In this document: piece after piece, positions 7,736 through 56,550 of the stretch | Position numbering within the stretch: position 1 is the first letter of the stretch | How the letters are laid out: each line of letters opens with the position of its first letter | Assembly (NCBI GenBank): GCA_963674745.2 | Contig: CAXXDV010000003.1 | Coordinates: 96,001 to 160,000 of the forward strand | Source: Desulfosudaceae bacterium | GTDB taxonomy: Bacteria; Desulfobacterota; Desulfobacteria; Desulfobacterales; Desulfosudaceae | DNA length: 64,000 nucleotides | Direction of reading: 5' to 3' | Program-made: the position numbers and the translations under genes | The notes under the pieces: generated by a model | Database searches by the model: none | Told to the model about the DNA's origin: nothing | The model's input: only the letters and a program-made list of their open reading frames with translations

Positions 7736-8152
7736 ATGAACCAGGAACATAAAATTCGTGTCCTTGTCGCTAAACCGGGGCTGGATGGCCATGAAAGAGG
7801 TGCCAGGGTTGTCGCTTATGGACTTCGGGATGCCGGGTTCGAGGTGATTTACACCGGGTTACGTCAGACGCCGGGGCAGATCGCCAAAGCGGCGGTTGAT
7901 GAAGATGTGGACGTTATTGGATTGTCCATATTATCCGGTGCCCACCTGTTGCTTACCAGGGAGGTCATCAATAACCTTCGTGAACTCGAGGCCGACGATA
8001 TCATTGTTCTGGTGGGCGGAGTCGTTCCGGAAAACGATTTTTCAGAATTGAAGGAAATGGGGGTTACCGAAATCTTTACTTCCGGTACGCCCATATCCGC
8101 TATTGCAGAAACGATTCAAAACACAACTGCGGCCAGGCGGAATGCCTCATAG
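7736..8152 (+). CDS. Acyl-CoA mutase small (cobalamin-binding) subunit
   Basis: [10 protein letters not shown] (DxHxxG), [23 protein letters not shown] before ATG 7736. Confidence 0.95.
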
Positions 8153-8211
8153 AAAAGTAGTCCTGCCTTTAACTTTAACTGATTAAATACTCGGATATGT
8201 ACGAGGTGTTT

Positions 8212-9972
8212 ATGTTTCAAGATGATGAAAAAGAGATGGAAAAGATAAAGCATGCTGAAGAAAATTGGCGAAAAAACCTGCTTGAGAAACGGGTCGAGCG
8301 GTTTAATCTGGCCAAAAGTCCGACAACCTTTTACAGCCCGGCTGCTTTGACAAAACATGATTTTATGGAAAAGGTCGGTTTCCCCGGTGAGTATCCCTTT
8401 ACGGCCGGCAATAACCCTTTTGATTTCTGGCGGGCTTTTGCCGAAGACGCCGCTAAAATGGGATATCGCCCGGATTGGGGCGGAGCCGGAAAAGTCGGCA
8501 AGTACGGCGGATTCGGCACCCCGGCCGATTACCGCGACTACCTCTTTCGCATGCAGTCCATGGGAAGAAAAGGCGGTCCCAATATTGCTTTTGACCTGGC
8601 CACCCAGTGTGGCTATGATCCGGACAGCGCCCGGGCCATCGGCGAAATCGGACGCGTCGGCGTGTCGGTGGCTTCTTTCCGGGATTTTCAGATCATTTAT
8701 GAAGCCTATACCGGTGATCTTGATATTGACAAAGTGCCGTCCAATTTCACCATCAATGCGCCGGCAGCCGTTATTATCGCCATGTATGCCGTGCTGGCAA
8801 AAAAACGGGGTATCCCCCTGGAACACCTGGCCGGTACGCCTCAGAACGACATCCTCAAAGAGTTTATCGCCCGCGGCACCTATATTTTTCCGCCGCGGCA
8901 ATCCATGCGCCTGTTCCGGGACATCTGCGCTTTTTGCGTGGGACATATGCCCAGGCTCAACATCAATAGTATCGGGGGTTATCATATCCGTGAAGCCGGC
9001 GCCAGTCGGGTTCAGGACCTGGCCTTTTCCCTGGCCAACGGCAAAGCCTATATTCAGGCCGGCCTTGAAGCCGGGCTGGAAGTTGACGCGTTTGCCCCCC
9101 GGTTTACCTTTAATGCCTTTGGGGGCAGCATGGAAATGTACCAGGAGATCGCCTTTCAGAGGGCGGCCCGACGCATGTGGGCCAGAATGCTCAAAGAGGA
9201 ATTCGGGGCTAAGGATAAGCGCAGCATGATCATCCGCCAGCCCATTACCGCTCATATCGGTTGTTCTTCCACCACCCTCAACCGGCCGCTGAACAACCTG
9301 GCCCGGGCGGTTGTGGGCGGCCTGGCGGCCGGTATGTCCGGCGGCATGCCGGGTGTGTATCCGCCTTTTGATGAACCCCTGGGCCTGGGCCACAGCCAGG
9401 AGGCGGTTCAGTTGCAACTGGATGCCACGCGCATCATGATTTACGAAGCCAAAGTCGCCGATGTCAACGACCCCTGGGCCGGATCTTATTTTATGGAGTC
9501 CCTGACCGATGAAATCGAGACGGACGCACTGGCGGAGATGAAAAAAATCGACGACATGGGCGGCGCGGTGGCGGCCATCGAAAGCGGTTACATGCAACGG
9601 GCCGTGGCCAGAAGTGCTTATGAGCGGCAAAAACAGATCGAACGCCAGGAAACGTTCCTGGTCGGGGTCAACTGTTTTACCGGCGAGAACGAAATCACCG
9701 TCAACGTCAATCGCGAGGTCGAGGCCACCTATGACCCGGAACTGATGAAGACCGCCGAAGAGCGGCAGAAAGCGGCACTGGCACAGTTAAAACAGGAAAG
9801 AGATGATAAGGCCGTATCCGGTGCCCTGGCGACGTTAAAAGGCCATGCCGCCGATCCGGATAAAAACCTGATGCCGGGTATCTGTGACTGTGTTGAACAG
9901 GAGGCTACCCTGCAGGAGATATGCGATGTGCTCAGGGAGGTGTTTGGAGAGGCGGAGCCGGTCAAGCTCTAA
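8212..9972 (+). CDS. Methylmalonyl-CoA mutase-family large subunit, probably (1-methylalkyl)succinyl-CoA mutase
   Basis: PGEYPFT, QNDILKEFIARGTY, GGYHIREAG, DPWAGSYFMESLT, VGVNCF. RBS GAGGTG before ATG 8212. Substrate inferred from context. Confidence 0.9.
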   Translation: MFQDDEKEMEKIKHAEENWRKNLLEKRVERFNLAKSPTTFYSPAALTKHDFMEKVGFPGEYPFTAGNNPFDFWRAFAEDAAKMGYRPDWGGAGKVGKYGGFGTPADYRDYLFRMQSMGRKGGPNIAFDLATQCGYDPDSARAIGEIGRVGVSVASFRDFQIIYEAYTGDLDIDKVPSNFTINAPAAVIIAMYAVLAKKRGIPLEHLAGTPQNDILKEFIARGTYIFPPRQSMRLFRDICAFCVGHMPRLNINSIGGYHIREAGASRVQDLAFSLANGKAYIQAGLEAGLEVDAFAPRFTFNAFGGSMEMYQEIAFQRAARRMWARMLKEEFGAKDKRSMIIRQPITAHIGCSSTTLNRPLNNLARAVVGGLAAGMSGGMPGVYPPFDEPLGLGHSQEAVQLQLDATRIMIYEAKVADVNDPWAGSYFMESLTDEIETDALAEMKKIDDMGGAVAAIESGYMQRAVARSAYERQKQIERQETFLVGVNCFTGENEITVNVNREVEATYDPELMKTAEERQKAALAQLKQERDDKAVSGALATLKGHAADPDKNLMPGICDCVEQEATLQEICDVLREVFGEAEPVKL

Positions 9973-10095
9973 AAATTGCCTTTTGGCCCGATGTCGGCGT
10001 TGTGCTCAAATTTTAATCCTCGAAATACGCCAAGTATTCCTCCGGTTAAAATTTTCGCACGCCTTGACCTCGAACCAAAATTCAAATTTTTAGAG
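9967..10095. repeat. MITE-like element with 11-bp terminal inverted repeats
   Basis: CTCTAAAAATT (9967-9977) and AATTTTTAGAG (10085-10095). The left end contains the mutase TAA stop. Confidence 0.6.
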
Positions 10096-10110
10096 ATACC
10101 CTTAAGTACT

Positions 10111-10298
10111 AATGCTCTCGTTAAAAAAGAAGAATAGATGGCAAAGTACAAAGTTCTAGTCCGGCTTAAAATTGGGGGCGTGCAAATCCTGAGGAATGCA
10201 GAGTACTTAAAGTACGTGAAATCCCGAAGGGCGCGGCGCAACACAGATCTTGAACTTTTTACTTTGCCATCCCAGTTTCGACTTTTTACGAATGCATC
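10111..10298. repeat. Nested MITE-like repeat (GATGGC...GCCATC family)
   Basis: Inner ends GATGGCAAAGTACAAAGTTC / GAACTTTTTACTTTGCCATC (10137-10271). The body is the inverted homolog of 26608-26731. Confidence 0.7.
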
Positions 10299-11749: not shown

Positions 11750-13083
11750 GGTTCTTCTCCCAATTAGTGGGAGGAGTTAAGCTGCTAATAAAAAATGGAC
11801 ATCATCAGTTCTTTCTTCTATCCAGAAAGTTGAGAGACAATTCTGGAAGAAAGGAGACCGATGATGTCCGCTATGAGTATAAAGCCCTATCTCCCTTTTT
11901 GTCGAGTCCGTTTTACAAAACAAACGGTTTCTGACGCCGGAGATATGGCGATGATAATTGCCGAGCCAGACGAGCGCTATCGCCCTATTTGTTATAGTTG
12001 CGGCAGCCCGGCTCAAGGCGTTCATGACCAGGCCAGACGTCCGTTGCGGGATTTGAACCTTGGGGCCGCAAATGTATGGATCAACTGCAGATATCGTAAA
12101 ATTTATTGCCCCCGTTGCCAGGGTATTCGGGTTGAAGACCTGGACTTTTTCAATCCGTACCAGCGGGTTACCAAAAGACTGGCCCTTTATATCCATGAGT
12201 TGTGTAAGATTTTGACGGTCTCTGAAGTGGCCGCGCATTTGGAGCTCAACTGGAAGACGGTCAAAAATATTGATAAAAACTTTTTGGAAGAATCGTTTGG
12301 AAGGACGGACTACAGCGACTTGAGCATACTGGCGGTTGATGAAATCGCCATCCATAAAGGCCATACGTATATGACTGTTGTTTTGGACTATCAAACCGGT
12401 CGGGTGGTATGGCTTGGCAGGGGCCGATCCGTGGAGACGCTTCAAGTCTTTTTCGCCGGCATGAGCCAGGAACAGAAACAGGCGCTGGAAGCCATCGCCA
12501 TGGATATGTGGGATCCTTACATTAAAACGGTTCGAGAGAATGTGCCTCATGTAAAGATCGTGTTTGATCTTTTTCATGTGGTTCACGCATTTAATAAGGT
12601 GATCGACAAAGTTCGAATAGAAGAGTTTAGAAAAGCGACGAAGCCGGACCAGGCGATATACAAAGGAACCAAGTATTTGCTGCTGTCCAATCCCCAGAAT
12701 ATTCATAGCAGTGAGGCCCGGCAGCATTTGCGGCAGCTTCTTGAAATTAATGAAACCATATCTACGGTCATGATTTTGAAAGATTGTCTGAAGCGAATAT
12801 GGGACTATCAAAAAAGGGGCTGGGCCAAAAAGAGATTGGATGAATGGTGTGCCCTGGCCAGAACGGTGAGCCACAGGCCCGTACAGAAATTTGCCGACAT
12901 GCTTGAAAGGCACGCTTACGGCATCCTGAACCATTGCGATTATCCGATTCATACCAGTAAAATAGAAGGTGTTAATAATAAAATTAAGGTCATAAAACGA
13001 AAATCCTATGGATTTCATGACGATAGATACTTTACATTAAAGGTCATACAGGCCTTTTCCTCCCACTAATTGGGAGAAGAACC
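11750..13083 (+). mobile_element. Complete ISL3-family insertion sequence (1334 bp)
   Basis: Perfect 26-bp TIRs GGTTCTTCTCCCAATTAGTGGGAGGA (11750-11775, 13058-13083). 8-bp target duplication AAAACGTT (11742-11749, 13084-13091). Confidence 0.96.
11861..13069 (+). CDS. ISL3-family DDE transposase
   Basis: Zinc-finger CYSC...CPRC, AVDE, AMDMWDPY, VFDLFHV, EGVNNKIKVIKRKSYGF. Stop lies inside the right TIR. Confidence 0.95.
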   Translation: MMSAMSIKPYLPFCRVRFTKQTVSDAGDMAMIIAEPDERYRPICYSCGSPAQGVHDQARRPLRDLNLGAANVWINCRYRKIYCPRCQGIRVEDLDFFNPYQRVTKRLALYIHELCKILTVSEVAAHLELNWKTVKNIDKNFLEESFGRTDYSDLSILAVDEIAIHKGHTYMTVVLDYQTGRVVWLGRGRSVETLQVFFAGMSQEQKQALEAIAMDMWDPYIKTVRENVPHVKIVFDLFHVVHAFNKVIDKVRIEEFRKATKPDQAIYKGTKYLLLSNPQNIHSSEARQHLRQLLEINETISTVMILKDCLKRIWDYQKRGWAKKRLDEWCALARTVSHRPVQKFADMLERHAYGILNHCDYPIHTSKIEGVNNKIKVIKRKSYGFHDDRYFTLKVIQAFSSH

Positions 13084-13119: not shown

Positions 13120-14466
13120 ATGACAGAAAACGCATCGATCCCGGTAACCGAGAAAATAGCCGCTTTTGTGGCGGATACCCGGGCCGAAGATATTCCGGAA
13201 GAGATGTTCGCGCATGCCCGGGTTGCTTTTATGGACTGGGTGGCCGTCACCCTGGGCGGCAAAGACGACCCCCTGGTCGACAAGTTGATATCGTATACGA
13301 ACAAACTGGGCGGATTGCCCCAGGCCACGATTATCGGCCGGGGCGGAATGAAAAAAAGCGTAGCCGATGCGGCCCTTATCAACGGCGCTGCCTCGCACGC
13401 CCTGGATTACGATGATACCCTGGTTTCGTTTCTGGGACATCCATCGGTGACCCTGTTCCCGGCCCTGGTGGCCCTGTCCGAATGGCGGGAGGAAAGCGGC
13501 CGGGATTTTCTGACTGCTTATCTGATCGGCCTTCAGGCCGGCGCCGTGGTTGGTGCCTGTGCCAGCCTGGACCACTACATGGCCGGCTGGCACGCTACGG
13601 CCACATTGGGGCATATCGCCTCGGCCGCGGCCTGCGCCCGGCTGCTTGGCCTGGGAAAAACACAGGCGCAATACGCGCTGGGCATCGGTGCCACCCAGTC
13701 TTCCGGATTGAAACGCGTTTTCGGCACCATGTGCAAGCCGTTTCATGCCGGCCGGGCTTCTCAATCAGGACTGATGGCGGCATTACTGGCGGCTGATGAT
13801 TTTACCAGTGCCGAAGATATTCTGGAAGGTCCCCAGGGGTTTTTTCAGGCCCTGAAAGGCACCATCAATAAAGATGCCGTTGAACTGTTGGGCCTTGGTT
13901 GGGACGTGGTCAACCTGTCCCAGAAATATCATGCCTCCTGTCATGCCACCCATTCTCCTCTGGAAGCCGCCCTGGCAGTGGTGAATGAAGAAAGGCTGTC
14001 TCCGGACCGGATTGCCGCCATTACCGTTCATTCTTCCCAGCTGGCCCTGGACGCGGCCGGCAAGCTGAAACCGCAGACCGGGCTGGAAGGTAAATTCAGC
14101 ATTCCTTTCTGCGTGGCCAACGCCATTATTACCGGTGTGACCGGGACGCAGGCCTTTACCGACCAGCAGGTCAAAGATTTTCGCATACAGGACCTGATGG
14201 GGAAAATAACGGTCAAGCTGGATGCCGGTAAAACCGCTCTGGAATCAACGATTGTCGTGGAAGATACCGAAGGAAACCGGTTTGAGCGATCTTCCGATAT
14301 CCTGCAGGAGATTCCGCCGCTGGAGCTGAAAGAAACACGGGTACGGCAGAAATTTATCGATCTTTGCCAACCGGTCATCGGCGAAGACAAAACAAAAGAG
14401 GCCATGAAGGATATCGATAATCTGGAAACGTTGTCGTCCATGAAAATATTCGCGGAGAAATTCTGA
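13120..14466 (+). CDS. MmgE/PrpD family protein
   Basis: NGAASHALDYDD, GHPS, GWHATAT, CKPFHAG, KYHASCHATH, GKFS. Confidence 0.9.
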   Translation: MTENASIPVTEKIAAFVADTRAEDIPEEMFAHARVAFMDWVAVTLGGKDDPLVDKLISYTNKLGGLPQATIIGRGGMKKSVADAALINGAASHALDYDDTLVSFLGHPSVTLFPALVALSEWREESGRDFLTAYLIGLQAGAVVGACASLDHYMAGWHATATLGHIASAAACARLLGLGKTQAQYALGIGATQSSGLKRVFGTMCKPFHAGRASQSGLMAALLAADDFTSAEDILEGPQGFFQALKGTINKDAVELLGLGWDVVNLSQKYHASCHATHSPLEAALAVVNEERLSPDRIAAITVHSSQLALDAAGKLKPQTGLEGKFSIPFCVANAIITGVTGTQAFTDQQVKDFRIQDLMGKITVKLDAGKTALESTIVVEDTEGNRFERSSDILQEIPPLELKETRVRQKFIDLCQPVIGEDKTKEAMKDIDNLETLSSMKIFAEKF

Positions 14467-15743: not shown

Positions 15744-16205
15744 ATGTTTTACAAAAAAAAGACCGGGGTATGGCTGGTCTGGGCAGTCGGTGCAGCCTTG
15801 GTGTTCCTTACCGGTGTTTTGCAACCGGACATCGCCCAGGCCGAGGTGGCTGTCATTGCCAATCCCTCTGTGCCCATCAGCAAGATTTCCAGTGATGATT
15901 TGAAAAAAATCTTTACCGGAAAGATGGTGGTCTGGGAGGGTGGCCAGTCAATCAAACCGGCCACATTGAATGACGGATCAGTACATGAAGAGTTTGTTAA
16001 AAACTATACCGGTAAAACCACCGACCAGTTTAAAACCTATTGGCGAAGGATGATTTTTACCGGGCAGGGGATTCAACCCAGAAGTTTTTCCAGTTCCAGG
16101 GACCTGATTGAGTATGTTTCTGAAACACCGGGCGCCATTGGATATGTTTCGCCTTCGGACATTTCGGCGGATTTAAAAAAGCTTAATGTTTCAGGAAAAG
16201 AATAA
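15744..16205 (+). CDS. Exported small periplasmic-binding-like protein (single PstS-like lobe)
   Basis: Signal peptide ending AQA, VIANPS, YWRRMIFTGQG, PGAIGYV. A family usually paired with a porin gene. Confidence 0.75.
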   Translation: MFYKKKTGVWLVWAVGAALVFLTGVLQPDIAQAEVAVIANPSVPISKISSDDLKKIFTGKMVVWEGGQSIKPATLNDGSVHEEFVKNYTGKTTDQFKTYWRRMIFTGQGIQPRSFSSSRDLIEYVSETPGAIGYVSPSDISADLKKLNVSGKE

Positions 16206-16215
16206 GGAGATAACC

Positions 16216-17610
16216 ATGAAGAAATTTATATTGCTAAGCATCATCAGTCTGGGGCTGGCAGCCAATGCCGGTGCGGTGGAACTGTCCGGAGGAGAACTTC
16301 ACGGTTTCATATCCCAGGGCTATTTGAATTCCAGCCACAATAATTTTCTTTCCCATGACAGCAAAGAGGGTAGTTTTGAATACATGGAGATGGGTATAAA
16401 TTTTAACAGATGGCTTACCCCCAACCTTACCGCCGGGTTTCAATTGTTTGCCAAGGACCTGGGCAAGGCCGAAAACCAGGAGGTCAAACTGGACTGGGCC
16501 ATCCTGAACTATCGCTGGGAACCCTGGCTCAACGCCAAAGCGGGCCGGCTGAAATTAAAGACCGGTTTGTACAATGACACCCGGGATATCGATATGGTCC
16601 GGCCCTGGGCGCTTCTGCCCCAGAGCTGTTACCTGGAGTATTTCCGGGACGCGTCCCTGTCGCTTGACGGCGGCGCGTTTTACGGAAATCTGCCCGCCGG
16701 CAAAATAGGCGACCTGTCCTATGAAGTTTATTTGGGAACCAAGGACATCAACACAGATCGCGACGGCACCATGACCCGGTTTATTGAAGACAATACCACC
16801 TTTGTTAACGAAGACATCAATAAATATGATTTTGACAGTGTCTGGGGGCTGAACCTTGAATGGCAAACCCCGGTAGAAGGACTGATCATCGGCGCATCGC
16901 ACACCAAGACGGACTTAAGGGTTTCCGCAACTTTCCAGGAAGATACCTTCGGCGGACCGCCCATGGTCAATGTCAACCAGGGCTTTGACCCCGCCACGGG
17001 CACCACCACCATCACCACCACGGTTACCACCATGGCCGTCAATGCCGGTGATTTACTTAAAACCCGGTACACGGAATTTGATGAACAGTATTATTACATC
17101 AGATATATCCGTGGGAACCTGGAGCTCTCAGGTGAATGCTGGCACCAGCGTAATGAACAAGATATCACGACCTGGTCCACCGGTGATATCGTCGCCACCA
17201 CGGAAACAACCGTCATCCCTGCGGCCGGCCCGCCAACCACCTCCACGGCGGTCAATGTGCTGGCCAACAGTTGGGCCAACATCATGGTTCAAAAAAGAGA
17301 AGCCCTGGGCTATTATGTGGCCGCAGCTTACCGGTTCAGTCACTGGTTTCAACTGGCCGGTTATTATTCGGTAGCCTTTCCGGATAAGGATGATAAGAGC
17401 GGTATTGATCAGGAAAAGGCCGGAAATAATGATTATGAAGCCTGGCTGAAAGATTATTGTATCACCCTGCGGTTTGATGTGGGCACCAACTGGACCTTCA
17501 AGCTGGAAAACCACTTTATGGACGGCGTCGCCTACCTCAACCGTGCTATCAACGGCGACCTCGAACAGCACTGGAACCTGTTTGTTGCCAAGGCCACATA
17601 TATGTTTTAG
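16216..17610 (+). CDS. Outer-membrane beta-barrel (porin-like) protein
   Basis: Signal peptide, HGFISQGY, LDWA, AGRLK, amphipathic beta strands, C-terminal TYMF. RBS AAGGAG before ATG 16216. Confidence 0.8.
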   Translation: MKKFILLSIISLGLAANAGAVELSGGELHGFISQGYLNSSHNNFLSHDSKEGSFEYMEMGINFNRWLTPNLTAGFQLFAKDLGKAENQEVKLDWAILNYRWEPWLNAKAGRLKLKTGLYNDTRDIDMVRPWALLPQSCYLEYFRDASLSLDGGAFYGNLPAGKIGDLSYEVYLGTKDINTDRDGTMTRFIEDNTTFVNEDINKYDFDSVWGLNLEWQTPVEGLIIGASHTKTDLRVSATFQEDTFGGPPMVNVNQGFDPATGTTTITTTVTTMAVNAGDLLKTRYTEFDEQYYYIRYIRGNLELSGECWHQRNEQDITTWSTGDIVATTETTVIPAAGPPTTSTAVNVLANSWANIMVQKREALGYYVAAAYRFSHWFQLAGYYSVAFPDKDDKSGIDQEKAGNNDYEAWLKDYCITLRFDVGTNWTFKLENHFMDGVAYLNRAINGDLEQHWNLFVAKATYMF

Positions 17611-18204: not shown

Positions 18205-18220
18205 TGGCATATAAATTGCT
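18205..18220 (+). promoter_or_regulatory. Sigma-54 promoter for the assC-assA operon
   Basis: TGGCATATAAATTGCT, about 75 nt upstream of assC, after an AT-rich tract. Confidence 0.8.
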
Positions 18221-24919: not shown

Positions 24920-24935
24920 TGGCACCTCTCTTGCA
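24920..24935 (+). promoter_or_regulatory. Sigma-54 promoter for the acyl-CoA ligase/carboxyltransferase operon
   Basis: TGGCACCTCTCTTGCA, an exact consensus match. Confidence 0.85.
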
Positions 24936-26609: not shown

Positions 26610-26731
26610 TGGCTTCGTAAAACGTCCAGGCTCTTCGTTGCGCTGCATCCTTCGGAATTTCACGTACTGCCATGTACGCTGCATTCCTCAGGATTTGCGC
26701 GTCTCGATCCTGAACCTTTTACTTTGTCATC
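26608..26731. repeat. MITE-like repeat, inverted homolog of 10137-10271
   Basis: GATGGCTTCGTAAAACGTCC...CTTTTACTTTGTCATC. Shares CTGCATTCCTCAGGATTTGC with the reverse complement of the 10.2-kb copy. Confidence 0.72.
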
Positions 26732-26769
26732 ATAACGTTGGTTTTTTACAAGTATTCTAGAAACGATCT

Positions 26770-27342: not shown

Positions 27343-27383
27343 TGTGGCAAGCATTTTGAAAATTATACGGTAAGGAGATTATT

Positions 27384-28961: not shown

Positions 28962-28973
28962 GGGGGTGATGAG

Positions 28974-34161: not shown

Positions 34162-34186
34162 TTTTTATCCGAAAATTGATGGTGTG

Positions 34187-35163: not shown

Positions 35164-35366
35164 AACCGGAGTCCTTCTTGGCGGAGAAAGATTGACAGTA
35201 CCTTCTTTGTGCCCCTTGATTAAAACAGCCATGGCAGGGTAAAAACTACAACTGAACTCACTTTTTTGGGTTTGTAAATTGAACATGTCAGCCGCCTTTG
35301 TTTTGGGAGTTATGTTGATTGAAACTGTCATTTTCTAACTGTACGTTTATTTGTTAAAATATATGT

Positions 35367-36280: not shown

Positions 36281-36360
36281 TAAAAGGCCTTTCCGGACGC
36301 TAAGAATTGAGCCCGACGGTCGTAAAGCCCGGTGTTTTTGCAACCGGCTGCGTCATTACA

Positions 36361-37950: not shown

Positions 37951-38032
37951 GATCCCTCCTTATCCCGCGTAATAATTTCTGATAAAGGTTTAAGGCAACC
38001 CCGTGAACCCAAAATAAAGGGCCTGAGCTGAA

Positions 38033-39151: not shown

Positions 39152-39213
39152 GGTGAGCCTCCTATGGTGTCATCGTTATCAGGTGATGGTTTCTTATGTT
39201 TTTATTAAATTCT

Positions 39214-40725
39214 TTATATACTGTCTTCCGAGAAAACGGCTGAACCCGGACAATTCCTGGCAATCAACCGCTTAAACAGGTTGATGCGATTAACCTGGTT
39301 GGTGCCTTCGTAAATTTGAAGCAGCTTGGCGTCCCGTAACATTTTTTCAGCCCATTCGTTCTGTCGCACGCCGGCCTGCCCCATGAGCTCCAGCGCCATG
39401 CGGCAGTTGGTGACGCCGGCGTCGGTCCCGGCCACTTTGGCCAGGGAACCCCAGCCGTCTACGCGATCAATTTCAGCATCGGTTTGCATGTCAAAATTGA
39501 GCTTCCGCATCAACCAGGTGTTGAGCGGTTTGGAATTGAACCATTTGTTGAGACCGGCGAACAGACCGGCCGGCATGAACTTCAACATATAATAGGTGGG
39601 TTTGCTGTTTAACAGCTTCATCAGGCCGTGTAAACCATTGGCATAGTTGGCCTCGGAGTAAGCGATCCTGGCCAGGGCCACGTTTTTATACATTTCCGCC
39701 AGCATGCTCTGGCACCATTCATAGTCCACCATTTTCCGGCCTTCCAGTTGGTGCTCAGAGGCAAAACGCAGGGCGGTTTCAAAGGCGCCTCTGGCCGCGC
39801 CTGTGCCGAATGCGCCTACCCCCATACGGGAGGCGCCCCAGATATAGGCAAAAATCTGGGCGTTGGTGTCGTGACAGCATCGTTTGAGTTTGTCGATATG
39901 GGTATTGTCAATACAGACATTTTCATCCGGCACAAAGCAGTCACTGAAAATCAATTCACTGGCAATACTGCCTTTTTGTCCCATTTTCTTTTCGGTCTTA
40001 CCGAAGGAAAACCCTTTATCCCCTGTTTTTACGGCCAGCATGACGGTGTTCTCCGCGGCCCGATCCAGGTCCGTATAAGCGTGTACCAGGTGCCAGGTCG
40101 ACATATGGCCCATGGAGATGAAAATTTTAGTGCCGTTCAATACATACCCGCCGTCGACTTTTTTGGCGTGACAGCGAAGGTTGCCGGAATTCATGAACTC
40201 CACGTTTTGTGAATCCGTTCCGGCATCCGGTTCGGTCATGGCCAGCGAAAGCAGGCAGGGATTGCCGGTTTTTTCGCCCTCGACCACTTCCCGGAGAATA
40301 CGGTCCACGATTTTGATATTCCACGAGGAGGATATCTTGGTTACGCCCAGATAATGAACCCCGATAATGTTGGCGATGGCCAGGCAGCGGGAGGCAATCT
40401 CTTCCAGAAAGAATCCGATAGCGGACATGGAATAGCCTTTGCCACCGAAGAGTTTGGGCAGAAACAGGGTATAAAACCCCCATTCATTGGCTTTCTGCAC
40501 ATAATCCCAGGCCAGATGATCATGGTCCTCGTGCATTTTTCTGTCCAGCTCAAGCGCCCCGGGGATGGTAACTTCCTGGTTGAATTTTCTGGCAAGAGCA
40601 ATCAACATTCGGGTTTCTTTGATAATGCCTTTAGGCTGTTTTCCCGTCGCGTTGAGACTTAACATGATGTCATCAAAGGCAGGCTCCTTGTTTGTCCACA
40701 TCTTTATTTCTGACCGGGAAATCAT
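39214..40725 (-). CDS. Acyl-CoA dehydrogenase with internal insertion
   Basis: AMTEPDAGTD, LNGTKIFIS, KKMGQK, RDAKLLQIYEGTNQ. Confidence 0.9.
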   Translation of the reverse strand: MISRSEIKMWTNKEPAFDDIMLSLNATGKQPKGIIKETRMLIALARKFNQEVTIPGALELDRKMHEDHDHLAWDYVQKANEWGFYTLFLPKLFGGKGYSMSAIGFFLEEIASRCLAIANIIGVHYLGVTKISSSWNIKIVDRILREVVEGEKTGNPCLLSLAMTEPDAGTDSQNVEFMNSGNLRCHAKKVDGGYVLNGTKIFISMGHMSTWHLVHAYTDLDRAAENTVMLAVKTGDKGFSFGKTEKKMGQKGSIASELIFSDCFVPDENVCIDNTHIDKLKRCCHDTNAQIFAYIWGASRMGVGAFGTGAARGAFETALRFASEHQLEGRKMVDYEWCQSMLAEMYKNVALARIAYSEANYANGLHGLMKLLNSKPTYYMLKFMPAGLFAGLNKWFNSKPLNTWLMRKLNFDMQTDAEIDRVDGWGSLAKVAGTDAGVTNCRMALELMGQAGVRQNEWAEKMLRDAKLLQIYEGTNQVNRINLFKRLIARNCPGSAVFSEDSI

Positions 40726-40795
40726 TGTCTCCTCCTGGTCCGGACATGCCGGAAAAGATTAAAAAAGTTAATTGTTTAAAATACGTATATGCCGG

Positions 40796-41605
40796 TTAGA
40801 CCCCTTTAACCATCATCTCTGTTATGGCGTTTATCATTCGTTTAGGTGTGAAGCGGTTCATGACAAAGAAAAGGAACCACAGGTTGGGCTCTGGTATATA
40901 CACTGACTTTCCTTTGATAAATGCCTGAACGCCTTTTCCGGCAATGGTGGCGGGGTCGCTTTTTCCGGCAAAACGATAAAATCTTAATTTCTCGGGGAAA
41001 CCGTCACCTTTAAGCAACGGGGTATCCGTGTACCCGGGGTTAAGGGTAAATATTTTGACATGGGTACCTTTAAGCTCCTGTTGCACCGCCTCACTGAGAC
41101 TCTGGACAAACGCCTTGGTGGCACCGTAAACAGCATGACGGGGCGTGGGAACGAAAGCGGAAACGGAGACAACGTTAAAGATGTATCCGGAATCGCGCTT
41201 GACCATGTCGGGCAGAAAATAGTGCATCATCAACATATAGGCCCTTGCGTTCACGGCTAAGACCCTTTCATGGGCGGCTACGGAAGTCTCATGAAACTTC
41301 CCGAAGGAAATGGTGCCGGCATTATTTACCAGCACATCAATTTGGGGGGAGAGTCTCTTGACCCGGTTATATATATCGTCCGGACCTTCGGGGCCGGACA
41401 GATCACCGGTGAGCGTGGAGACATTGATGCGATAAGTGCTTTTCAGCTCTTCACCCCAGGCTTCCAGGGTTTCCTTTTCTGCTTCCAGGGCCACGATAAT
41501 CAGGTTGGCGCCTTCCGCGGCAAAACACCGTGACAGTTCCTTGCCGATACCCGAGGACCCCCCGGTGATAAAAACGGTTTTCCCCTTCAGGTTGATTATC
41601 GCCAT
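40796..41605 (-). CDS. Short-chain dehydrogenase/reductase
   Basis: TGGSSGIG, VNNAG, YGATK. Confidence 0.92.
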   Translation of the reverse strand: MAIINLKGKTVFITGGSSGIGKELSRCFAAEGANLIIVALEAEKETLEAWGEELKSTYRINVSTLTGDLSGPEGPDDIYNRVKRLSPQIDVLVNNAGTISFGKFHETSVAAHERVLAVNARAYMLMMHYFLPDMVKRDSGYIFNVVSVSAFVPTPRHAVYGATKAFVQSLSEAVQQELKGTHVKIFTLNPGYTDTPLLKGDGFPEKLRFYRFAGKSDPATIAGKGVQAFIKGKSVYIPEPNLWFLFFVMNRFTPKRMINAITEMMVKGV

Positions 41606-41640
41606 ATTTCTGTCCTTAATTATGATGCCTGTAACGAAAA

Positions 41641-42939
41641 CTACAGGTAATAGATTTTTGACATATCTCCTTCTTTGACAATCTTTCTGTCTTCAGGCAC
41701 TTCTACCAGAACATCGGCTTTGGCCATGGGACTGAAAACACCGGACCGCTGTTCGGGGATGATCCATACGGTCTGCCGGTTATTTTCGGTTTTCAATTGA
41801 CCTCTTAAAAATTTCCGCCGCCCCGGCTGCAGGATGATGCTGTTCTGAACCGTTGCTGTTCCGGTCTTAAGGCCCCACCGGTTTTTACCGGACATTTTGT
41901 CAATAACGGGTCTTACAAATAAGTAGAAATTATTAACCGAGGAGACCGGGTTGCCCGGCAGCCCGAATATCAGGGTATGGCCCATTGTGCCGAAAAAGAG
42001 GGGCTTGCCCGGTTTTACTTTTACACGCCAGAAAATTTCCCGGACCCCGGCCCTTTGCAGGGTTTCGTGTACAATATCATAATCACCGACCGAAACACCG
42101 CCGGATAACAGCAAAATGTCAAAATGACGTCCGTCGTTGAGGGTTTTTAACAGATCATCCGACTTGTCCTGTACCACGCCCAGAAAAGTCGTATCCGCGC
42201 CACTTTCGGTAGTCAGCCCGTAAAGTGAATAACCGTTGATATCATAAATCCGGCCCGGCCCGGCAACGTCTCCGGGGCTGACCAGCTCACTCCCGGTGGA
42301 TATAATACCAATTTTCGGCCGGCAGGAGACCTCGACTTCCGCGACCCCGCAACTGGCCAGTACGCCCATAAGAAGCGCCGTAACCGTAGTACCCGTCTCG
42401 GCGATGCGCTGACCCGGCAGAATGTCCTGTCCTTTGTGGATGATATAATGATTGTCACCGACGGAATCAAAAATCAGGACGGTAGCACGATCCTCGGAAA
42501 GCGTATTTTCGATTTTGATGATTGCGTCCGCGCCTTCCGGCACCGGTGCCCCGGTCATGATCCTGGCCGCCTGGCCGGTCTTGACGATTTTGTCGGACAT
42601 GCTGCCGGCGGGAATTTCATCGATTACGGTTAATGGGACGGGGTTTTCCTTTGTTGCCGATTGAACGTCGTCACTTTTAACGGCATATCCGTCCATAGTG
42701 GACTTGTTGAATGGCGGGATGGCAATATCGCTTTCCACATCCTGCCGCAGAATCCGTCCCAAACTGTCTGCCAGTGCTACTGCTTCAGTGGCGATCTTTT
42801 GATCAGGCACATTTTCAAGACAGAGCTCGAGCGCGTTTTCATAATCCACCAGGCGTCGTTCAAAAACCGGTGGGACTTTTCTTTTTTCTAGCCCACTCAA
42901 ATCTGGAATCTGCTCGCTCGTGTTGTGGCTAAGTGTCAT
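41641..42939 (-). CDS. moeA: Molybdopterin molybdotransferase
   Basis: STMDGYAV, IMTGAPVP, STGSEL, SGGVSVGDYD, KPGKP, GLPGNP. Confidence 0.95.
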   Translation of the reverse strand: MTLSHNTSEQIPDLSGLEKRKVPPVFERRLVDYENALELCLENVPDQKIATEAVALADSLGRILRQDVESDIAIPPFNKSTMDGYAVKSDDVQSATKENPVPLTVIDEIPAGSMSDKIVKTGQAARIMTGAPVPEGADAIIKIENTLSEDRATVLIFDSVGDNHYIIHKGQDILPGQRIAETGTTVTALLMGVLASCGVAEVEVSCRPKIGIISTGSELVSPGDVAGPGRIYDINGYSLYGLTTESGADTTFLGVVQDKSDDLLKTLNDGRHFDILLLSGGVSVGDYDIVHETLQRAGVREIFWRVKVKPGKPLFFGTMGHTLIFGLPGNPVSSVNNFYLFVRPVIDKMSGKNRWGLKTGTATVQNSIILQPGRRKFLRGQLKTENNRQTVWIIPEQRSGVFSPMAKADVLVEVPEDRKIVKEGDMSKIYYL

Positions 42940-45806: not shown

Positions 45807-48041
45807 TTAGTAATTACTGAAATCAAAAGTCTTAACTTCGCGTTGTTTCTCTTCTTCTTTTACGGGTTCGGGTACTTCTTCCATAAACATCAAAAAAAGC
45901 GTTGTCCGTTCCATCCAGGTCTCAGGGTCAGGGATGCGCGGCACCTTGTCCGGGGTGTAAAAAACATAGGGCATCCTGGTCTGGATACCGGCGTAAACTC
46001 CCGGATCCCGCAGAAAGTTGATGATCCATTGATATCTCAGCCGCTTTTTGGACAACATCAGGTCTATTGACATGTCTTCCAGCTTTTTGCCTTCAGGTGG
46101 TTCCCCGGTAAAATTGATCGGATGGCATTGCATGCACTTATCATTTCTGAACCGGTATTTACCCATTTCAAGGGTTTTATCATCATAATCTGTTTTGACC
46201 AGTTCCGGTTCATATGGGATGGTGGCCCCAGTCTGTTTGTCTTCTGACATGAGTGCGTGCAGGTACTCGATCAACAAAGTCAATTCGTTATAAGAAAAAT
46301 CAAAGGTCGGCATTCGGATCTGCAGCCAGGGCCTCATGGCGGTCGGTCGTTTCAGGTAGTTAAACAGCCAGTCGGGCTGAACTTTTTCAGGCTCATCGAT
46401 AATCATGGGCGGAACCATGGTTTTCCTGTCAAGGTACCCATCAATCCGGGGTTTAGCCGCATCTTTGAGCATCTGGTGGCACCCCTGGCAATTAAAATGT
46501 CGAAGCATCCAGTCGCCCCGTTCTTTCATGCGGTCCGACCCGGAGGCCCGGGCAATAAAGTTTTCGGGGGCATTCAGCAGCCGGTTATACAGATAGAAAA
46601 TTACCAGCTGGTCAAGTTCGTCCTCGGACATGACATAATTCGGCATATACATGGGCATGTCTTCGGTCTGATAAATCTCCGGTTTGGCGATTTTATTCCG
46701 CAGCCAGTCCCACTTGGTATGGGAAACATCCGAATAGCCGAAGGGCAATTCCTCCATGCGCTTGTCAGCGACATCCATAACGCTTACACCGACTTTGGCC
46801 GGGTCCGCTTTGTCCTTGATTTTGTGGCAGCCCAGGCACCCCAGGCTCTGAATCAGCGCTTTGCCCTCTTCGCTGTTGCCCGGTGGAACGTCTTCTTTTA
46901 TTAACGATTTAGCTTCGCTGTCCTTTAAAGAGGCCACATAGGCCGTCAGATTGTTAACATCATCCGCAGTCAACTCGACATTCGGCATCCAGGTGTCAGG
47001 ATTGACGGCTTTGGGGTTGTCAATCCAGTTATAGAGCCAGTCGGTTTTCATTTTTAAACCGGCATCGGACAGTAAGGGTACCCGGCGGGAATAGCCGGGC
47101 TTGTCGCGCTCCTGGCTGTGGCAGGCGATGCAGCCTTTATCTGTAAACAATTGACGTCCGGTTTTAACAACGCCTTTGGGGTTGTTGTCTTTCTCAAGCA
47201 TTAAAGCCTCATCAGGCAGTGAGTAGATATAGTCGGTAATATCCCGGATCTGTTCGGGACTGATTCTGAATTTCGGCATGAGCGTGGCCGGGCGGACCGC
47301 TTCCGGATTTTCGATCCATGTGGCCACCCAGTTCCGGTCTTGGATTTTTTTCGCCAACCCGGAGAAAGGTGCTGAATATTTTGGCAACTCTTCCATAACA
47401 TTGGCATCATGACATCCGTAGCACCCCATTTCTACAAAATTTGTCCTGCCTTGGGAAGCTTTTTCTGCGCCCTCGAGCCCGAAGACCACCTCATGACATT
47501 CAAGGCAGGTACTTTGCGCGTACTTTAAGGGCAGCCTGGGCAGTTCCCAGTTTTCTTCATGTCCGTGCGCTTTTTCGACGGTCAGGCCGACGCCCTGACC
47601 ATGATGGCACAGGGTACAGCCGAAATTATCAATTTTATGGGTTTTTAATATTTCCGGCGGATGGGCCTTGAGCGGGTTTTCTGAATCAGTGAAAAGGCTG
47701 TTTTTCATCCCGATATGGCAGGTCATGCACAGGTCACGGGTCTGTGATCCGGGCAGGAACACCTGCCGCATCTTGACGGCCTGTGACCGCTCCTGGTCGG
47801 CCTTCAGTTTCGCCCATTTTTTCAGGCTGATTTCATCACCGGCCTGTTCCGCTTCCTGGATTTTTACATTCAGTTTTTCAATATACCGGCTGTTATATTC
47901 AGCCTGATATTTTTTCCATTTGTTCCGGTTATTCTGTTCTCTTACCACGACGCCGATAATCGTCATTAGAATCAGCACAGAAACAACGCCAAACAGCACC
48001 CTTAACTTGAATTTCGCCTGGATAAATTTCGTCTTTTTCAT
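45807..48041 (-). CDS. Membrane-anchored octaheme cytochrome c
   Basis: N-terminal TM helix and eight CxxCH motifs: CMTCH, CTLCH, CLECH, CYGCH, CIACH, CLGCH, CQGCH, CMQCH. Confidence 0.92.
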   Translation of the reverse strand: MKKTKFIQAKFKLRVLFGVVSVLILMTIIGVVVREQNNRNKWKKYQAEYNSRYIEKLNVKIQEAEQAGDEISLKKWAKLKADQERSQAVKMRQVFLPGSQTRDLCMTCHIGMKNSLFTDSENPLKAHPPEILKTHKIDNFGCTLCHHGQGVGLTVEKAHGHEENWELPRLPLKYAQSTCLECHEVVFGLEGAEKASQGRTNFVEMGCYGCHDANVMEELPKYSAPFSGLAKKIQDRNWVATWIENPEAVRPATLMPKFRISPEQIRDITDYIYSLPDEALMLEKDNNPKGVVKTGRQLFTDKGCIACHSQERDKPGYSRRVPLLSDAGLKMKTDWLYNWIDNPKAVNPDTWMPNVELTADDVNNLTAYVASLKDSEAKSLIKEDVPPGNSEEGKALIQSLGCLGCHKIKDKADPAKVGVSVMDVADKRMEELPFGYSDVSHTKWDWLRNKIAKPEIYQTEDMPMYMPNYVMSEDELDQLVIFYLYNRLLNAPENFIARASGSDRMKERGDWMLRHFNCQGCHQMLKDAAKPRIDGYLDRKTMVPPMIIDEPEKVQPDWLFNYLKRPTAMRPWLQIRMPTFDFSYNELTLLIEYLHALMSEDKQTGATIPYEPELVKTDYDDKTLEMGKYRFRNDKCMQCHPINFTGEPPEGKKLEDMSIDLMLSKKRLRYQWIINFLRDPGVYAGIQTRMPYVFYTPDKVPRIPDPETWMERTTLFLMFMEEVPEPVKEEEKQREVKTFDFSNY

Positions 48042-48769
48042 ATCGAGAAATAGGGAGTAACAATAATATATTTAACATGAAAGAAAAGCCGGAGAACGAT
48101 TTTAATAATCGTTCCGAACATCAGCAGGATCATCACCATTGTCGTAAAATACCGGAAAGGCCCCAGGGTTTTGTAAAACTGTTTTTTAAGCAGGGCCGGC
48201 AGGCCGATGCCCAGTGTAAAATAGAGCACGACCAGGGTATAGCCCAGGATGGCGGGCAGGTTGACCAATTGTTCTTCAGCGTCCTTGGCAATGGACCAGT
48301 CCTCCCAGGGCCAGTAAAAGTGCCAGTTGGGGCCTCTGAAAAACTGGCCGAAAACGATCAGCACGAACCACAGGGTGTAACCGACCATAAACATTGAAAC
48401 GGACAGTTTCCGGTCTTTAAGGTTATATTCGCCAACGCCTTTGGGATTGGGGTCAATATAAGGAATGATCATCAACCCGACAATGATCAGTCCGGGTAAC
48501 ATGACACCGGCGATCCAGGGATCGAAATAAACCAGCATTTCCTGCAGGCCGATGAAATACCAGGGCGCCTTGGCGGGATTTTCCGTCCAGTTGGGATCGG
48601 CGATTGCTTTTAAAGGCGCGTCAATTCCCATTGACCAGATGGAAAGAACCATGATCGCTATAAGAATCGCAATGAACTCTCTGGAAACCAGATCCGGGAT
48701 GGTGAAGACATATTCCTCTTTCAATTCACCACCTGATTGTTCCATTTGTTTGTTTTCAGCCGTTTCCAT
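48038..48769 (-). CDS. Cytochrome b C-terminal part (subunit IV/PetD-like)
   Basis: NPAKAPWYF (PEWY equivalent), IPYID, multiple TM helices. Confidence 0.85.
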   Translation of the reverse strand: METAENKQMEQSGGELKEEYVFTIPDLVSREFIAILIAIMVLSIWSMGIDAPLKAIADPNWTENPAKAPWYFIGLQEMLVYFDPWIAGVMLPGLIIVGLMIIPYIDPNPKGVGEYNLKDRKLSVSMFMVGYTLWFVLIVFGQFFRGPNWHFYWPWEDWSIAKDAEEQLVNLPAILGYTLVVLYFTLGIGLPALLKKQFYKTLGPFRYFTTMVMILLMFGTIIKIVLRLFFHVKYIIVTPYFSI

Positions 48770-48778
48770 TTTATTTCC

Positions 48779-49540
48779 TTACAGGGGCCTTGAAATTCCG
48801 CCGTCTTTTCTGATGCGCCAGAAGTGAACGGCCATCAAGAGGACACAGGCGACCGGCAACAGGACACAATGAAGCACGTAGAAACGCAGCAAGGCGTTGC
48901 CGCCCACCTGGTTGTCACCCAGCAGCAGAAACTGCATGTCGTTGTATTGCGTAATGCCGAGCAATTGGTGAAAGGGCCCTTCGTTTCCCAGAAAGGGCGT
49001 GGCCGCTGCCATCTTGGTGCCCACCGTGATGGCCCAGAAGGCAATCTGGTCCCAGGGCAGCAGATAACCGGTAAAGCTGAGCAGCAGCGTTATGACCAGC
49101 AGAAATACCCCGATGACCCAGTTGAACTCTCTGGGTGGTTTATAAGAGCTGGTCAGAAAAACGCGAAGCATGTGCAGCATCACCAGGATAACCATGGCAT
49201 GAGCCGCCCAGCGGTGCATATTTCTTAAAAACATGCCGAACAGCACCGTGTGCTCAATCAGCTTCATGTCCAGATAGGCATATTCCGGAACCGGCCGGTA
49301 ATAAAACATGAGCAGAATACCGGTAATGGTTTCGATGATGAACATCAGCATGGTCAGGCCGCCCAGGCAGAACGTGAACCGGAATTTCAGCGCCGAGGCT
49401 TTTATCTGCACCGGATGAAGATGCATAAAAACATTGGCGGTAACGGCCAGGGCCTTGTTCCTGGGTGTATCTGTAAACTTGTGCCTGAAAATCGAGCGCC
49501 AGGCCGCGCTTTCCGTAATTTTATTCAGCTTCATGTCCAA
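48779..49540 (-). CDS. Cytochrome b6-like subunit
   Basis: [14 protein letters not shown]...[29 protein letters not shown]...VHF, GISRPL. Confidence 0.93.
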
Positions 49541-55313: not shown

Positions 55314-55410
55314 AGTGCCCCCTTTAATTGCATTTTAGGTCCTTGGTCTGATTCGTTCCCTTTTTGACAAACTGCAACAGTAATAAATTTTTTGCGCCTT
55401 TTTTAATAAT

Positions 55411-55701
55411 TTATGTTACCGGCAGCAGCTGAATCGCGTTCCAGGGGCAGCCGGTCAGCATGGTTCCTTTTGAACCGCTGCTGACGCAGGCGCCGCAACC
55501 GACACAGTTGCCGCTGTCGACCGACATTTTTTTAAACGGATAATTTTCCTCATCATTCACCAGGTGAAGGGCATCAAATTTACAGAAGACCTGGCAGACG
55601 GGAACGCCTCCGCAGCCCGTACACCAGTCCAGAATCCGGGCGATTCTTTTGACCCGTGTACGTTTGGCCGGTTTTTCTTTTGTTGTAGCCGTATTCAACA
55701 T
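55411..55701 (-). CDS. 2x[4Fe-4S] ferredoxin
   Basis: CTGCGGVPVCQVFC and CVGCGAC...GCP. No export signal seen. Confidence 0.85.
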   Translation of the reverse strand: MLNTATTKEKPAKRTRVKRIARILDWCTGCGGVPVCQVFCKFDALHLVNDEENYPFKKMSVDSGNCVGCGACVSSGSKGTMLTGCPWNAIQLLPVT

Positions 55702-56273
55702 TACGTTACTTCGATATAGATTTTCTGGTCTTCAAATTCCTGCTTGGAATACACCAGGGCCGTATCCACGATTACATTGCCTTCGCTGTCAAGGGTAATA
55801 TGGTGCCTGTCAAGCGGGCGCGGGGCAGGCCCGGCGAATTCCACGCCGTTGGAGTGAAATTCGCTGCCGTGGCAGGGGCATTTAAAAATATTCAGGTCTT
55901 CGAACCAGTTGACCGTGCAGCCCAGATGGGTGCAACGGGCAAAAAGAGCGAAAACCCGGTCTTTGTCCCTGACCACAAAGAAACGGTGATTTTTTTTGAA
56001 ACGGGAGTCGATAAAGATGACACCGTACTGGTCGGGTTTTTTGTCGGTGATAAAATCGTTAACCTGGCCGATAACATACTTGCTGGGGGGGTGAAACACC
56101 ACCGAAGGGTATAAAAACTTCAACCCCTGATACATTCCCGCCCCCAGGCCTGTAAAGACAATCCCCCAACCGGCGACTGATATACCCTTGTTGAGAAATT
56201 CCCTTCTGTTCAGGGTGGTTTTCCCTTCCAGTTGATCCGCTGTTACATTGCCTGAATTCGAGCTTTCTGACAT
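55701..56273 (-). CDS. Rieske [2Fe-2S] protein
   Basis: Tat motif NRREFL with TM helix, CTHLGC, CPCHGS, GPAPRPL. Confidence 0.95.
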   Translation of the reverse strand: MSESSNSGNVTADQLEGKTTLNRREFLNKGISVAGWGIVFTGLGAGMYQGLKFLYPSVVFHPPSKYVIGQVNDFITDKKPDQYGVIFIDSRFKKNHRFFVVRDKDRVFALFARCTHLGCTVNWFEDLNIFKCPCHGSEFHSNGVEFAGPAPRPLDRHHITLDSEGNVIVDTALVYSKQEFEDQKIYIEVT

Positions 56274-56331
56274 TTTTTACTCACTTCTTATAAATATTGT
56301 TTAGTTGTCAGCGTCTGTGAGACATTGAAAA

Positions 56332-56550
56332 CTACTCTTTTTTTAAAAAGTTCCGAAACATTTCAAAAATAAAGGCCGCCACAAACATCATGCCGGTACC
56401 TTCAGCGTAGGGGACCCAGAAATAATAATGAATGTTTTCCCACATGGTCGTGTGCATGTTGTATCGCCAGTAGCAGTAATTGACGACGATAAAATGCAGC
56501 AGCGTAATGATTACGGCGGCAACAAGACTTCTTAAAATTTTTTTGATCAT
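56332..56550 (-). CDS. Small two-TM membrane protein
   Basis: 72 aa, two hydrophobic helices, RBS AGGGGGAG. First gene of the minus-strand run. Confidence 0.7.
   Translation of the reverse strand: MIKKILRSLVAAVIITLLHFIVVNYCYWRYNMHTTMWENIHYYFWVPYAEGTGMMFVAAFIFEMFRNFLKKE

Follow-up and report, generated by a model that had tools for sequence, protein, structure and literature searches.

A 64,000-nucleotide stretch of the genome of a Desulfosudaceae bacterium (hereafter the window; positions 96001-160000 of contig C3 in source genome G000) carries, on opposite strands, genes for a fumarate-adding alkylsuccinate synthase (Ass) and for a molybdenum hydroxylase of the Ahy type, which was proposed for Desulfosudis (Desulfococcus) oleivorans Hxd3. 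Fumarate-free alkane activation by Hxd3 has been under dispute for more than 20 years, and Ahy, although biochemically unproven, is widely used as a metagenomic marker of anaerobic alkane hydroxylation. We consider it probable that the window holds two complete hydrocarbon-activation modules with apparently separate regulation and different evolutionary histories. What we observed is gene content, orthology, synteny, distribution, assembly continuity and promoter motifs; from these we infer that both systems are active and that Ass and Ahy take different substrates, differing in chain length or as alkane versus alkene or other alkyl chain. Both systems belong to known kinds, and it is their combination and distribution that are new: the presence of both in 5 of the 13 species genomes that represent the Hxd3 family, adjacency in one genus, a family-wide ahy and an orphan second alpha subunit. 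The two routes have been treated as alternatives, as the original prediction said, and in passages of two papers Hxd3 figures as the only sulfate reducer that degrades alkanes independently of fumarate (PMC3653055, PMC7803848). A full-text literature search, with subscription journals, supplements and the 2016 review of ethylbenzene dehydrogenase (EBDH) outside its scope, found no report of ass and ahy in one genome, and among papers naming Desulfosudaceae it found no title or abstract on alkane activation.

Genes were called from a listing of open reading frames (ORFs) together with Pfam and NCBIfam scans, and the ass and ahy genes named in the original prediction were found at the positions it gave (Table 1). 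The ass block lies on the plus strand between 7.7 and 33 kb and faces the ahy block on the minus strand (35.8-56.3 kb); the distance from the end of assA to ahyA, predicted as about 31 kb, is 31,326 bases. AssA has an RVAGYS motif within its last 30 residues, that is, the glycyl-radical motif near the C-terminus. Direct comparison with AssA1 of Desulfatibacillum AK-01 (ACL03428.1) gives 69% identity, and comparison with cluster representatives that bear the names Desulfoglaeba alkanexedens, Desulfothermus naphthae and Smithella gives 68-76%; the representative of the cluster holding the D. alkanexedens alkylsuccinate synthase ADJ51097.1 shares 68%. Ten further glycyl-radical matches in the same genome are 27-35% identical to AssA. 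By these comparisons AssA goes with the named AssA/MasD proteins and not with other glycyl-radical enzymes. The source genome also has an unusually large set of glycyl-radical enzymes and several further activases, spread over several contigs (loci L084-L090).

The small ORFs assC, assB and masE encode 54, about 120 and 78 amino acids with four or five cysteines each. They are kept in a congener (G129) and in three other relatives (G243, G271 and G338), as is the pair of MoxR and VWA genes behind masE. The mutase subunits and MeaB are 76-90% identical to their counterparts in the congener, and the genes at 25041-33063 stand in the same order there, with 71-90% identity. Judged by gene content (activase, small subunits, ligase, mutase and carboxyltransferase), the ass block is a complete alkylsuccinate synthase system. 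The AssD activase would generate the glycyl radical and AssA would add the alkane to fumarate; the product would then pass through the CoA ligase, the B12-dependent mutase with MeaB, whose predicted role is the carbon-skeleton rearrangement of (1-methylalkyl)succinyl-CoA, and the carboxyltransferase, giving a branched acyl-CoA for beta-oxidation. These steps follow the established scheme set out in PMC3653055.

Along the direction of transcription, the ahy genes encode Rieske protein-A-C-B-D-cytochrome b-ExtQ-like protein-cytochrome c-beta-helix protein-MoeA-short-chain dehydrogenase/reductase (SDR)-two acyl-CoA dehydrogenases-CoA ligase-MobB. Of the earlier description as EbdABCD-type, the subunits stood and the order did not: it is A-C-B-D, as in Hxd3, and the operon runs about 14 kb further. 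AhyA is 84% identical over 992 residues to AhyA of Hxd3 (WP_012173623.1, the same as ABW66004.1 and identical to the protein in G067, the Hxd3 genome of our comparisons), which turned up among its closest database clusters, and 81% identical to the second published reference, OQX63933. Its best match among solved structures was EbdA (2ivf_A) with 740 bits, as against 428 with perchlorate reductase and 179 with NarG. In a quick IQ-TREE phylogeny of 25 sequences, in which Hxd3 AhyA and OQX63933 were the only named references, the window protein paired with copy 1 of the congener within a seven-row clade that includes Hxd3 AhyA (SH-aLRT 95); a nine-row clade adds two orphan paralogues (SH-aLRT 99). 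No further named reference came from the 80 loci considered, every one a contig of a metagenome-assembled genome, or from the control genomes, which contain no EBDH. A tree described in PMC7803848 has the two references, 84.7% identical to each other, clustering apart from EbdA, CmdA and S25dA, and it is on that description that we set AhyA apart from CmdA and S25dA. By homology the alpha subunit is orthologous to Hxd3 AhyA, as its predicted resemblance to Ahy implied, and stands apart from each of EbdA, perchlorate reductase and NarG. We rejected an identification as ethylbenzene dehydrogenase proper, since the EbdA equivalog model NF042978 gave 801 bits against a cut-off of 2000. The beta and delta subunits exceed the NCBIfam cut-offs for type II DMSO reductase subunits (482.7 against 480.7 and 152.5 against 152.3), and the alpha and gamma subunits fall short of theirs.

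The AhyA sequence has features of an exported molybdenum enzyme of the EBDH kind. A twin-arginine motif (SRRTFLK) stands at the N-terminus. D209 and K440 are invariant in 17 relatives and align with D223 and a lysine of EbdA, and H69, C73, C78 and C113, the FS0 His/Cys motif, are invariant in the same 17. The position of EbdA His192 is occupied by proline. The roles of these aligned residues (Mo-ligand Asp, Lys, His192) and of the FS0 motif we take to be those of the EBDH literature.

Beyond the four subunits, the cytochrome b/ExtQ-like/cytochrome c module is 62-86% identical to that of Hxd3, with a match to NF040969 of 281 bits against a cut-off of 290. MobB, MoeA and both acyl-CoA dehydrogenases are syntenic with Hxd3 at 62-68% identity. 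The beta-helix lipoprotein is 52% identical in Hxd3 and 43-58% in relatives, and is retained in ahy operons down to about 71% AhyA identity. The SDR and the ligase are present in the congener (the SDR also in G243) and absent from the Hxd3 block; the best solved relatives of the SDR are generic secondary-alcohol SDRs, with no specific match to phenylethanol dehydrogenase. Rieske, cytochrome b and cytochrome c genes accompany all 11 fully visible AhyA-like operons of at least 56% identity (L006-L010, L012, L013, L018, L020, L030 and Hxd3), whereas operons of 50% or less go without the electron module, with one exception, L075, which has the Rieske gene only. One of the former, L013, a contig of an uncultured Thermodesulfobacteriota metagenome-assembled genome (MAG), has a glycyl-radical enzyme 31% identical to AssA no more than 10 kb from its AhyA-like operon (68%), a further pairing of a Mo hydroxylase with a radical enzyme, though of another kind.

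Thirteen genes of the ahy block, from the Rieske gene to mobB, occur in identical order in Hxd3, at 52-86% identity, and genes for MerR, orf164 and DUF364 are also found near the Hxd3 ahy cluster. The congener is a different species (AhyA 86%, AssA 93%), in which a single contig of 346 kb includes both blocks and 27 kb separate assA from ahyA; its ass genes are 74-93% and its ahy genes 58-92% identical to those of the window. Genes for a response regulator, a histidine kinase and a B12-domain protein flank the two-block region in both species. The order of the blocks is swapped in the congener (G129, C3:182937-261540) relative to window positions 5442-60000, with relative orientation and outer flanks kept. 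In G243, G271 and G338, ass and ahy are on different contigs, and in G243 there is no ahy gene within about 29 kb of ass. Adjacency was therefore observed in this genus alone, where it occurs in two of three genomes, the third being 71% complete and without an AssA match. The original prediction had called the two systems one island. That description failed: ahy occupies an ancestral, family-wide locus syntenic with Hxd3, and ass is limited to a single subclade and, in the congener, is found on the opposite side of ahy.

The window assembly is not chimeric. The source genome (5.55 Mb in three contigs, completeness 99.96%, contamination 0.63%) has the window on a contig of 2.72 Mb. In sequencing run X1, a 13,820-base Logan contig matches 31001-40491 with 0 differences and continues for another 4.3 kb to the left; a Logan contig of run X2 spans 33217-37297 and so crosses the junction between the blocks at 33-36 kb. 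Together, Logan contigs of X1 and X2 cover 31001-51000 with 0 differences. A contig boundary lies within the ahy block, at about 40.47 kb, in each of the two runs. Depth in X1 steps from 12.7 to 9.1 at this point; depth in X2 is flat at 8.3-8.9. X1 and X2 come from one sample, probably the source of the assembly, and thus represent a second assembly of the same data, not a second sample. Continuity across the junction, on which the prediction depended, is thus bridged by both runs, and the congener has both blocks on one contig.

Co-occurrence of the two systems turned out to be recurrent. Among 13 species genomes of the family, 12 have an ahyA-like gene (the one that lacks it is 79% complete) and 5 have assA, all of them also with ahyA; Hxd3 has no AssA match, as expected. 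Across the order, an evenly drawn sample of 401 genomes contained 20 with ahyA-like genes and 35 with assA, and outside the family none had both. Within this sample, AhyA-like genes (72-77%) are also found in three further families, in genomes that have no assA, and a Desulfatibacillum-like family has assA in 10 of 12 genomes, mostly as two copies, and no AhyA. In a rooted FastTree phylogeny of RpoB, built without the G005 row, all five ass bearers fall among the seven genomes of one clade, g4+(g5,g1) (support 0.83), whereas the other, g3+(g6+g2) (support 0.95), which includes Hxd3, has ass in none of its six. This distribution is consistent with a single gain or a single loss of ass. The composition of the ass genes does not point to recent transfer: their G+C and GC3 of 0.61-0.67 fall inside the range of the genome, 0.608 +/- 0.076 for 973 long ORFs; the raw rise in G+C within the window was not counted as evidence of transfer. 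We think it likely, as part of the same reading, that Ahy is an ancestral, family-wide trait, and that Ass belongs to one of two subclades and, in this genus, came to lie next to ahy.

The two blocks also appear to be regulated separately. Next to mcmS lies a gene for a PAS-domain sigma-54 enhancer-binding protein, probably, from its domains and position, the activator of the ass regulon. The genes mcmS, assC and that for the CoA ligase are each preceded, at a distance of 60-120 nt, by a sigma-54-type motif; all three positions are kept in the congener, and they are kept in G243, G338 and G271 where contigs reach. The sequence upstream of the Rieske gene and of ahyA yielded no such motif, even at a tolerance of two mismatches, and an exact scan of the ahy regions compared from Hxd3 and G243 found none. 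Divergent from the ahy operon lies a MerR-family gene, a candidate regulator of ahy; it is found beside the ahy cluster in the congener (78%), in Hxd3 (42%) and at several more distant loci (32-44%).

Elsewhere in the source genome (G000:C1:1746830-1749802; locus L098:8830-11808) lies a second ahyA paralogue, which is intact, 81% identical and equipped with a Tat (twin-arginine) motif. It is flanked by GntR-family and FecR-domain genes and is not accompanied by genes for beta, gamma or delta. The genome has a single ahyBCD set. Orphan alpha copies also occur in the congener (C6:79255-82224) and in other phyla (loci L019, L025, L026, L028 and L056). These orphan genes suggest interchangeable catalytic subunits.

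The ISL3 transposase in the ass block is present in three identical copies in the genome; neither the regions compared from the congener and from Hxd3 nor the G338 contig has a match to it. For the pair of exported genes between assD and assC, in which PBP_like_2 on the first protein is the sole Pfam match and the porin-like protein has 474 amino acids, there is no match in the ass blocks of the relatives compared; in the congener about 14 kb of other DNA stands at this position. The genes at the junction of the blocks (33145-35331) have no match in region 165001-245000 of the congener or in the Hxd3 region compared.

Table 1. Positions of the ass and ahy genes and neighbouring features in the window (percentages are identities; G129 is the congener).
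Feature	Position	Strand	Evidence
PAS-domain sigma-54 enhancer-binding protein	5442..7277	+	Sigma54_activat 216 bits, PAS_9, HTH_8; G129 copy 82%, adjoining mcmS
Sigma-54-type promoter motif, upstream of mcmS	7637..7652	+	TGGCAT-N5-TTGCT; also in G129
B12 mutase small subunit (mcmS)	7709-8152	+	Pfam B12-binding
B12 mutase large subunit	8197-9972	+	Pfam MM_CoA_mutase 457 bits
MeaB GTPase	10250-11284	+	Pfam MeaB 271 bits
ISL3 transposase	11861..13069	+	Pfam DDE_Tnp_ISL3; intergenic, between orf102 and prpD
MmgE/PrpD-family protein	13120..14466	+	Pfam; adjoins assD also in G129, G338
assD, glycyl-radical activating enzyme	14516-15496	+	TIGR02494 335 bits (cut-off 174); Radical_SAM and 4Fe-4S domains
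Exported PBP-like protein and porin-like protein	15744..17610	+	Signal-peptide-like N-termini; between assD and assC
Sigma-54-type promoter motif, upstream of assC	18205..18220	+	Also in G129, G271
assC	18294-18458	+	Small Cys-rich subunit ORF
assA, 832 aa	18514-21012	+	PFL-like (PF02901) 429 bits, Gly_radical (PF01228) 102 bits
assB	~21095-21457	+	Small Cys-rich subunit ORF
masE	21479-21715	+	Small Cys-rich subunit ORF
MoxR-type AAA ATPase	22175-23020	+	Pfam AAA_5, CbbQ_C; assE/assF-type pair with VWA protein
VWA protein	22935-24698	+	Pfam VWA
Sigma-54-type promoter motif, upstream of CoA ligase	24920..24935	+	Exact consensus; also in G129, G243, G338, G271
AMP-forming CoA ligase	25041-26609	+	Pfam
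Carboxyltransferase	27384-28961	+	Pfam
DUF4125, NMO-type oxidoreductase, enoyl-CoA hydratase, DUF4037, epimerase-family protein	within 25041..33063	+	Pfam
Junction genes: orf338, TetR regulator, orf127	33145..35331	-	Pfam TetR_N; G+C 0.44; Logan-bridged
MoeA, SDR, two acyl-CoA dehydrogenases, CoA ligase, MobB	35795..42939	-	Pfam
Beta-helix (NosD-like) lipoprotein, 908 aa	42982..45708	-	Pfam Beta_helix, NosD; lipobox-like N-terminus
b6-type cytochrome b, ExtQ-like membrane protein, membrane-anchored 8-haem cytochrome c	45807..49540	-	Cytochrome_B 140 bits; 8 CxxCH
ahyD, delta chaperone	49541-50296	-	Hxd3 60%
ahyB, Fe-S beta subunit	50396-51559	-	Hxd3 82%
ahyC, haem-b gamma subunit	51619-52284	-	EB_dh domain; Hxd3 74%
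ahyA, Mo-bisPGD alpha subunit, 991 aa	52338-55313	-	Hxd3 84%
Rieske 2Fe-2S protein, first ahy operon gene	55701-56273	-	Pfam Rieske; CTHLGC...CPCHGS; Hxd3 70%, same position
MerR-family regulator, divergent from ahy operon	57579..58334	+	Pfam MerR_1; candidate ahy regulator

Several observations weigh against reading the window as two complete, separately regulated alkane-activation modules. Since alkane hydroxylation has never been demonstrated for an Ahy-type enzyme, speaking of two alkane-activation chemistries is an unproven assignment, and a passage of a 2026 paper still calls the reaction in Hxd3 unresolved (PMC13515206). AhyA and AhyC miss the NCBIfam subfamily cut-offs (882 against 985 and 135 against 170), and AhyC has no recognisable signal peptide although AhyA has a Tat signal; ahyC starts 53 nt past ahyA, and AhyC may be exported by hitch-hiking. 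A ketone carboxylase as a partner for ahy was considered and rejected: Hydantoinase_B is present in the source genome, G243 and G210 and absent from Hxd3 and the congener, and so does not track ahy. With the ISL3 element placed after the mutase genes and ahead of prpD-assD, transcription of assD could be disturbed, and the gene may be severed from the promoter of mcmS. The number of sigma-54 motifs across the window is not above chance (4 found, 2.45 expected); what counts in favour of the three motifs is their position and conservation alone. The RpoB tree is a single marker with a support of just 0.83 for the ass-bearing clade, and the AhyA gene tree joins g4+g5 to Hxd3, not to g1. Lastly, the RNA runs are sediment metatranscriptomes only. 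In X4, pieces were 90-95% like the cytochrome c, cytochrome b, ahyD and ahyB genes; they are sequences of relatives and hence no proof of transcription in this organism. Run X3 gave short exact fragments only.

Of the alternatives, the one that fares best holds that Ahy does not activate alkanes at all. It would instead hydroxylate another alkyl chain (such as 1-alkenes or products of these, long-chain ketones or alcohols, or the side chains of isoprenoids or lipids), leaving Ass as the sole alkane chemistry and the adjacency as a grouping of hydrocarbon and lipid catabolism. Biochemical proof for Ahy is absent according to passages of two papers (PMC13515206, PMC3653055); the cluster occurs in 12 of 13 family genomes irrespective of ass, and in the three other families without assA; the orphan alphas listed above suggest varied substrates for one electron module; the proline at the EbdA His192 position and the apparently separate regulation point the same way. 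Yet Hxd3 grows on alkanes with an ahy cluster and without an AssA match. Proteomics of alkane-grown Hxd3, from a 2012 meeting abstract as cited in a review (PMC3653055), implicates the enzyme, and 2-acetylalkanoates are described, in PMC7803848, together with ahyA in an oil reservoir sample. We therefore regard this explanation as unlikely, while taking it seriously.

Less still can be said for the idea that one system is silent or decaying and that a single route is used in practice. The insertion within the ass block, the existence of ass-free members of the family and two MAGs of the ass-bearing clade with no assA match would be in keeping with it, although those MAGs are only 71% and 79% complete. 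Against it, all genes of both blocks are intact open frames, promoters are conserved, and the insertion is intergenic. Identities to the congener are also equally high for the two blocks, as expected under purifying selection on both. Such decay appears improbable.

That the Mo enzyme is a respiratory reductase of the chlorate, selenate or nitrate type, fed by the Rieske/cytochrome b complex, is very improbable. The architecture is indeed that of the type II DMSO reductase family, and the cytochrome b and ExtQ-like protein resemble, below cut-offs, ExtP and ExtQ of a selenite/tellurite reduction operon; but the bit scores favour EbdA over perchlorate reductase and NarG, in line with the original prediction, the enzyme is orthologous to Hxd3 AhyA, and the operon holds an SDR, acyl-CoA dehydrogenases and a CoA ligase. 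The least probable explanation, an assembly chimera of two organisms, has in its favour that the source runs look mixed (millions of contigs) and that depth in X1 steps within the ahy block, and is countered so fully by the 0-difference contigs of both runs, the flat depth of X2, the size and quality of the assembly, the congener with both blocks on one contig, and nearest relatives of AssA and AhyA that lie in one and the same family, that we give it next to no credence.

Returning to the reading of two complete modules, we can sketch how Ahy might work. A Tat-exported, periplasmic, EBDH-like Mo enzyme would use water to hydroxylate a methylene carbon, oxidation of the resulting secondary alcohol would fall to the SDR, and MoeA and MobB would serve in maturation of the molybdenum cofactor. 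Haem b would hand the high-potential electrons of C-H hydroxylation on to the octahaem cytochrome and to the complex of Rieske protein and cytochrome b. To our knowledge, a sulfate reducer has no high-potential acceptor, and for this reason we suppose that the Rieske/cytochrome b/cytochrome c module runs in reverse on proton-motive force, reducing menaquinone.

A broader picture can be drawn, which we offer tentatively and consider less likely than not. Hxd3-type hydroxylation would be the ancestral hydrocarbon chemistry of the family; one subclade would have added fumarate addition and would keep both under separate regulators for different substrates. Ahy would be modular, with alpha subunits (the operon copy and the orphan paralogue) swapping on one beta/gamma/bc-type module that pushes electrons uphill to the quinone pool.

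With relatives of Hxd3 that have an orthologous ahy and a canonical ass under different promoters, Ahy function becomes experimentally testable. If the two systems are indeed both at work, the true substrate of Ahy could be read from differential expression. A family-wide ahy and a subclade-limited ass also counsel caution against taking metagenomic counts of ahyA and assA as different organisms.

Compared with known systems, the hydroxylase is closest to AhyABC(D) of Hxd3, the putative alkane C2-methylene hydroxylase: alpha is 84%, beta 82%, gamma 74% and delta 60% identical, and the A-C-B-D order is common to both. The two organisms belong to the same family and share the upstream Rieske gene and, downstream, cytochrome b, ExtQ-like protein, octahaem cytochrome c, beta-helix protein, MoeA, two acyl-CoA dehydrogenases and MobB. 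Unlike Hxd3, the window block adds an SDR and a CoA ligase, an orphan second ahyA is present, and a complete ass block lies alongside. Like EbdABCD of Aromatoleum aromaticum (PDB 2ivf), the enzyme combines a Tat-signal Mo alpha subunit, an Fe-S beta subunit, a haem-b gamma subunit and a delta chaperone, with the Mo-ligand Asp and the Lys conserved; unlike EbdABCD, it has the A-C-B-D order and a Rieske/cytochrome b/cytochrome c module of its own, missing from more distant EBDH-like operons. The fumarate-adding system resembles AssA1 of AK-01 and AssA of Desulfoglaeba alkanexedens ALDC in its glycyl-radical domain and motif and in having accessory and downstream genes in one block. It differs from them in copy number, with one per genome here where most of the genomes of family f6 that have assA give two matches, and in lying beside an ahy locus, with an ISL3 insertion and a PBP-like/porin-like pair inside the block.

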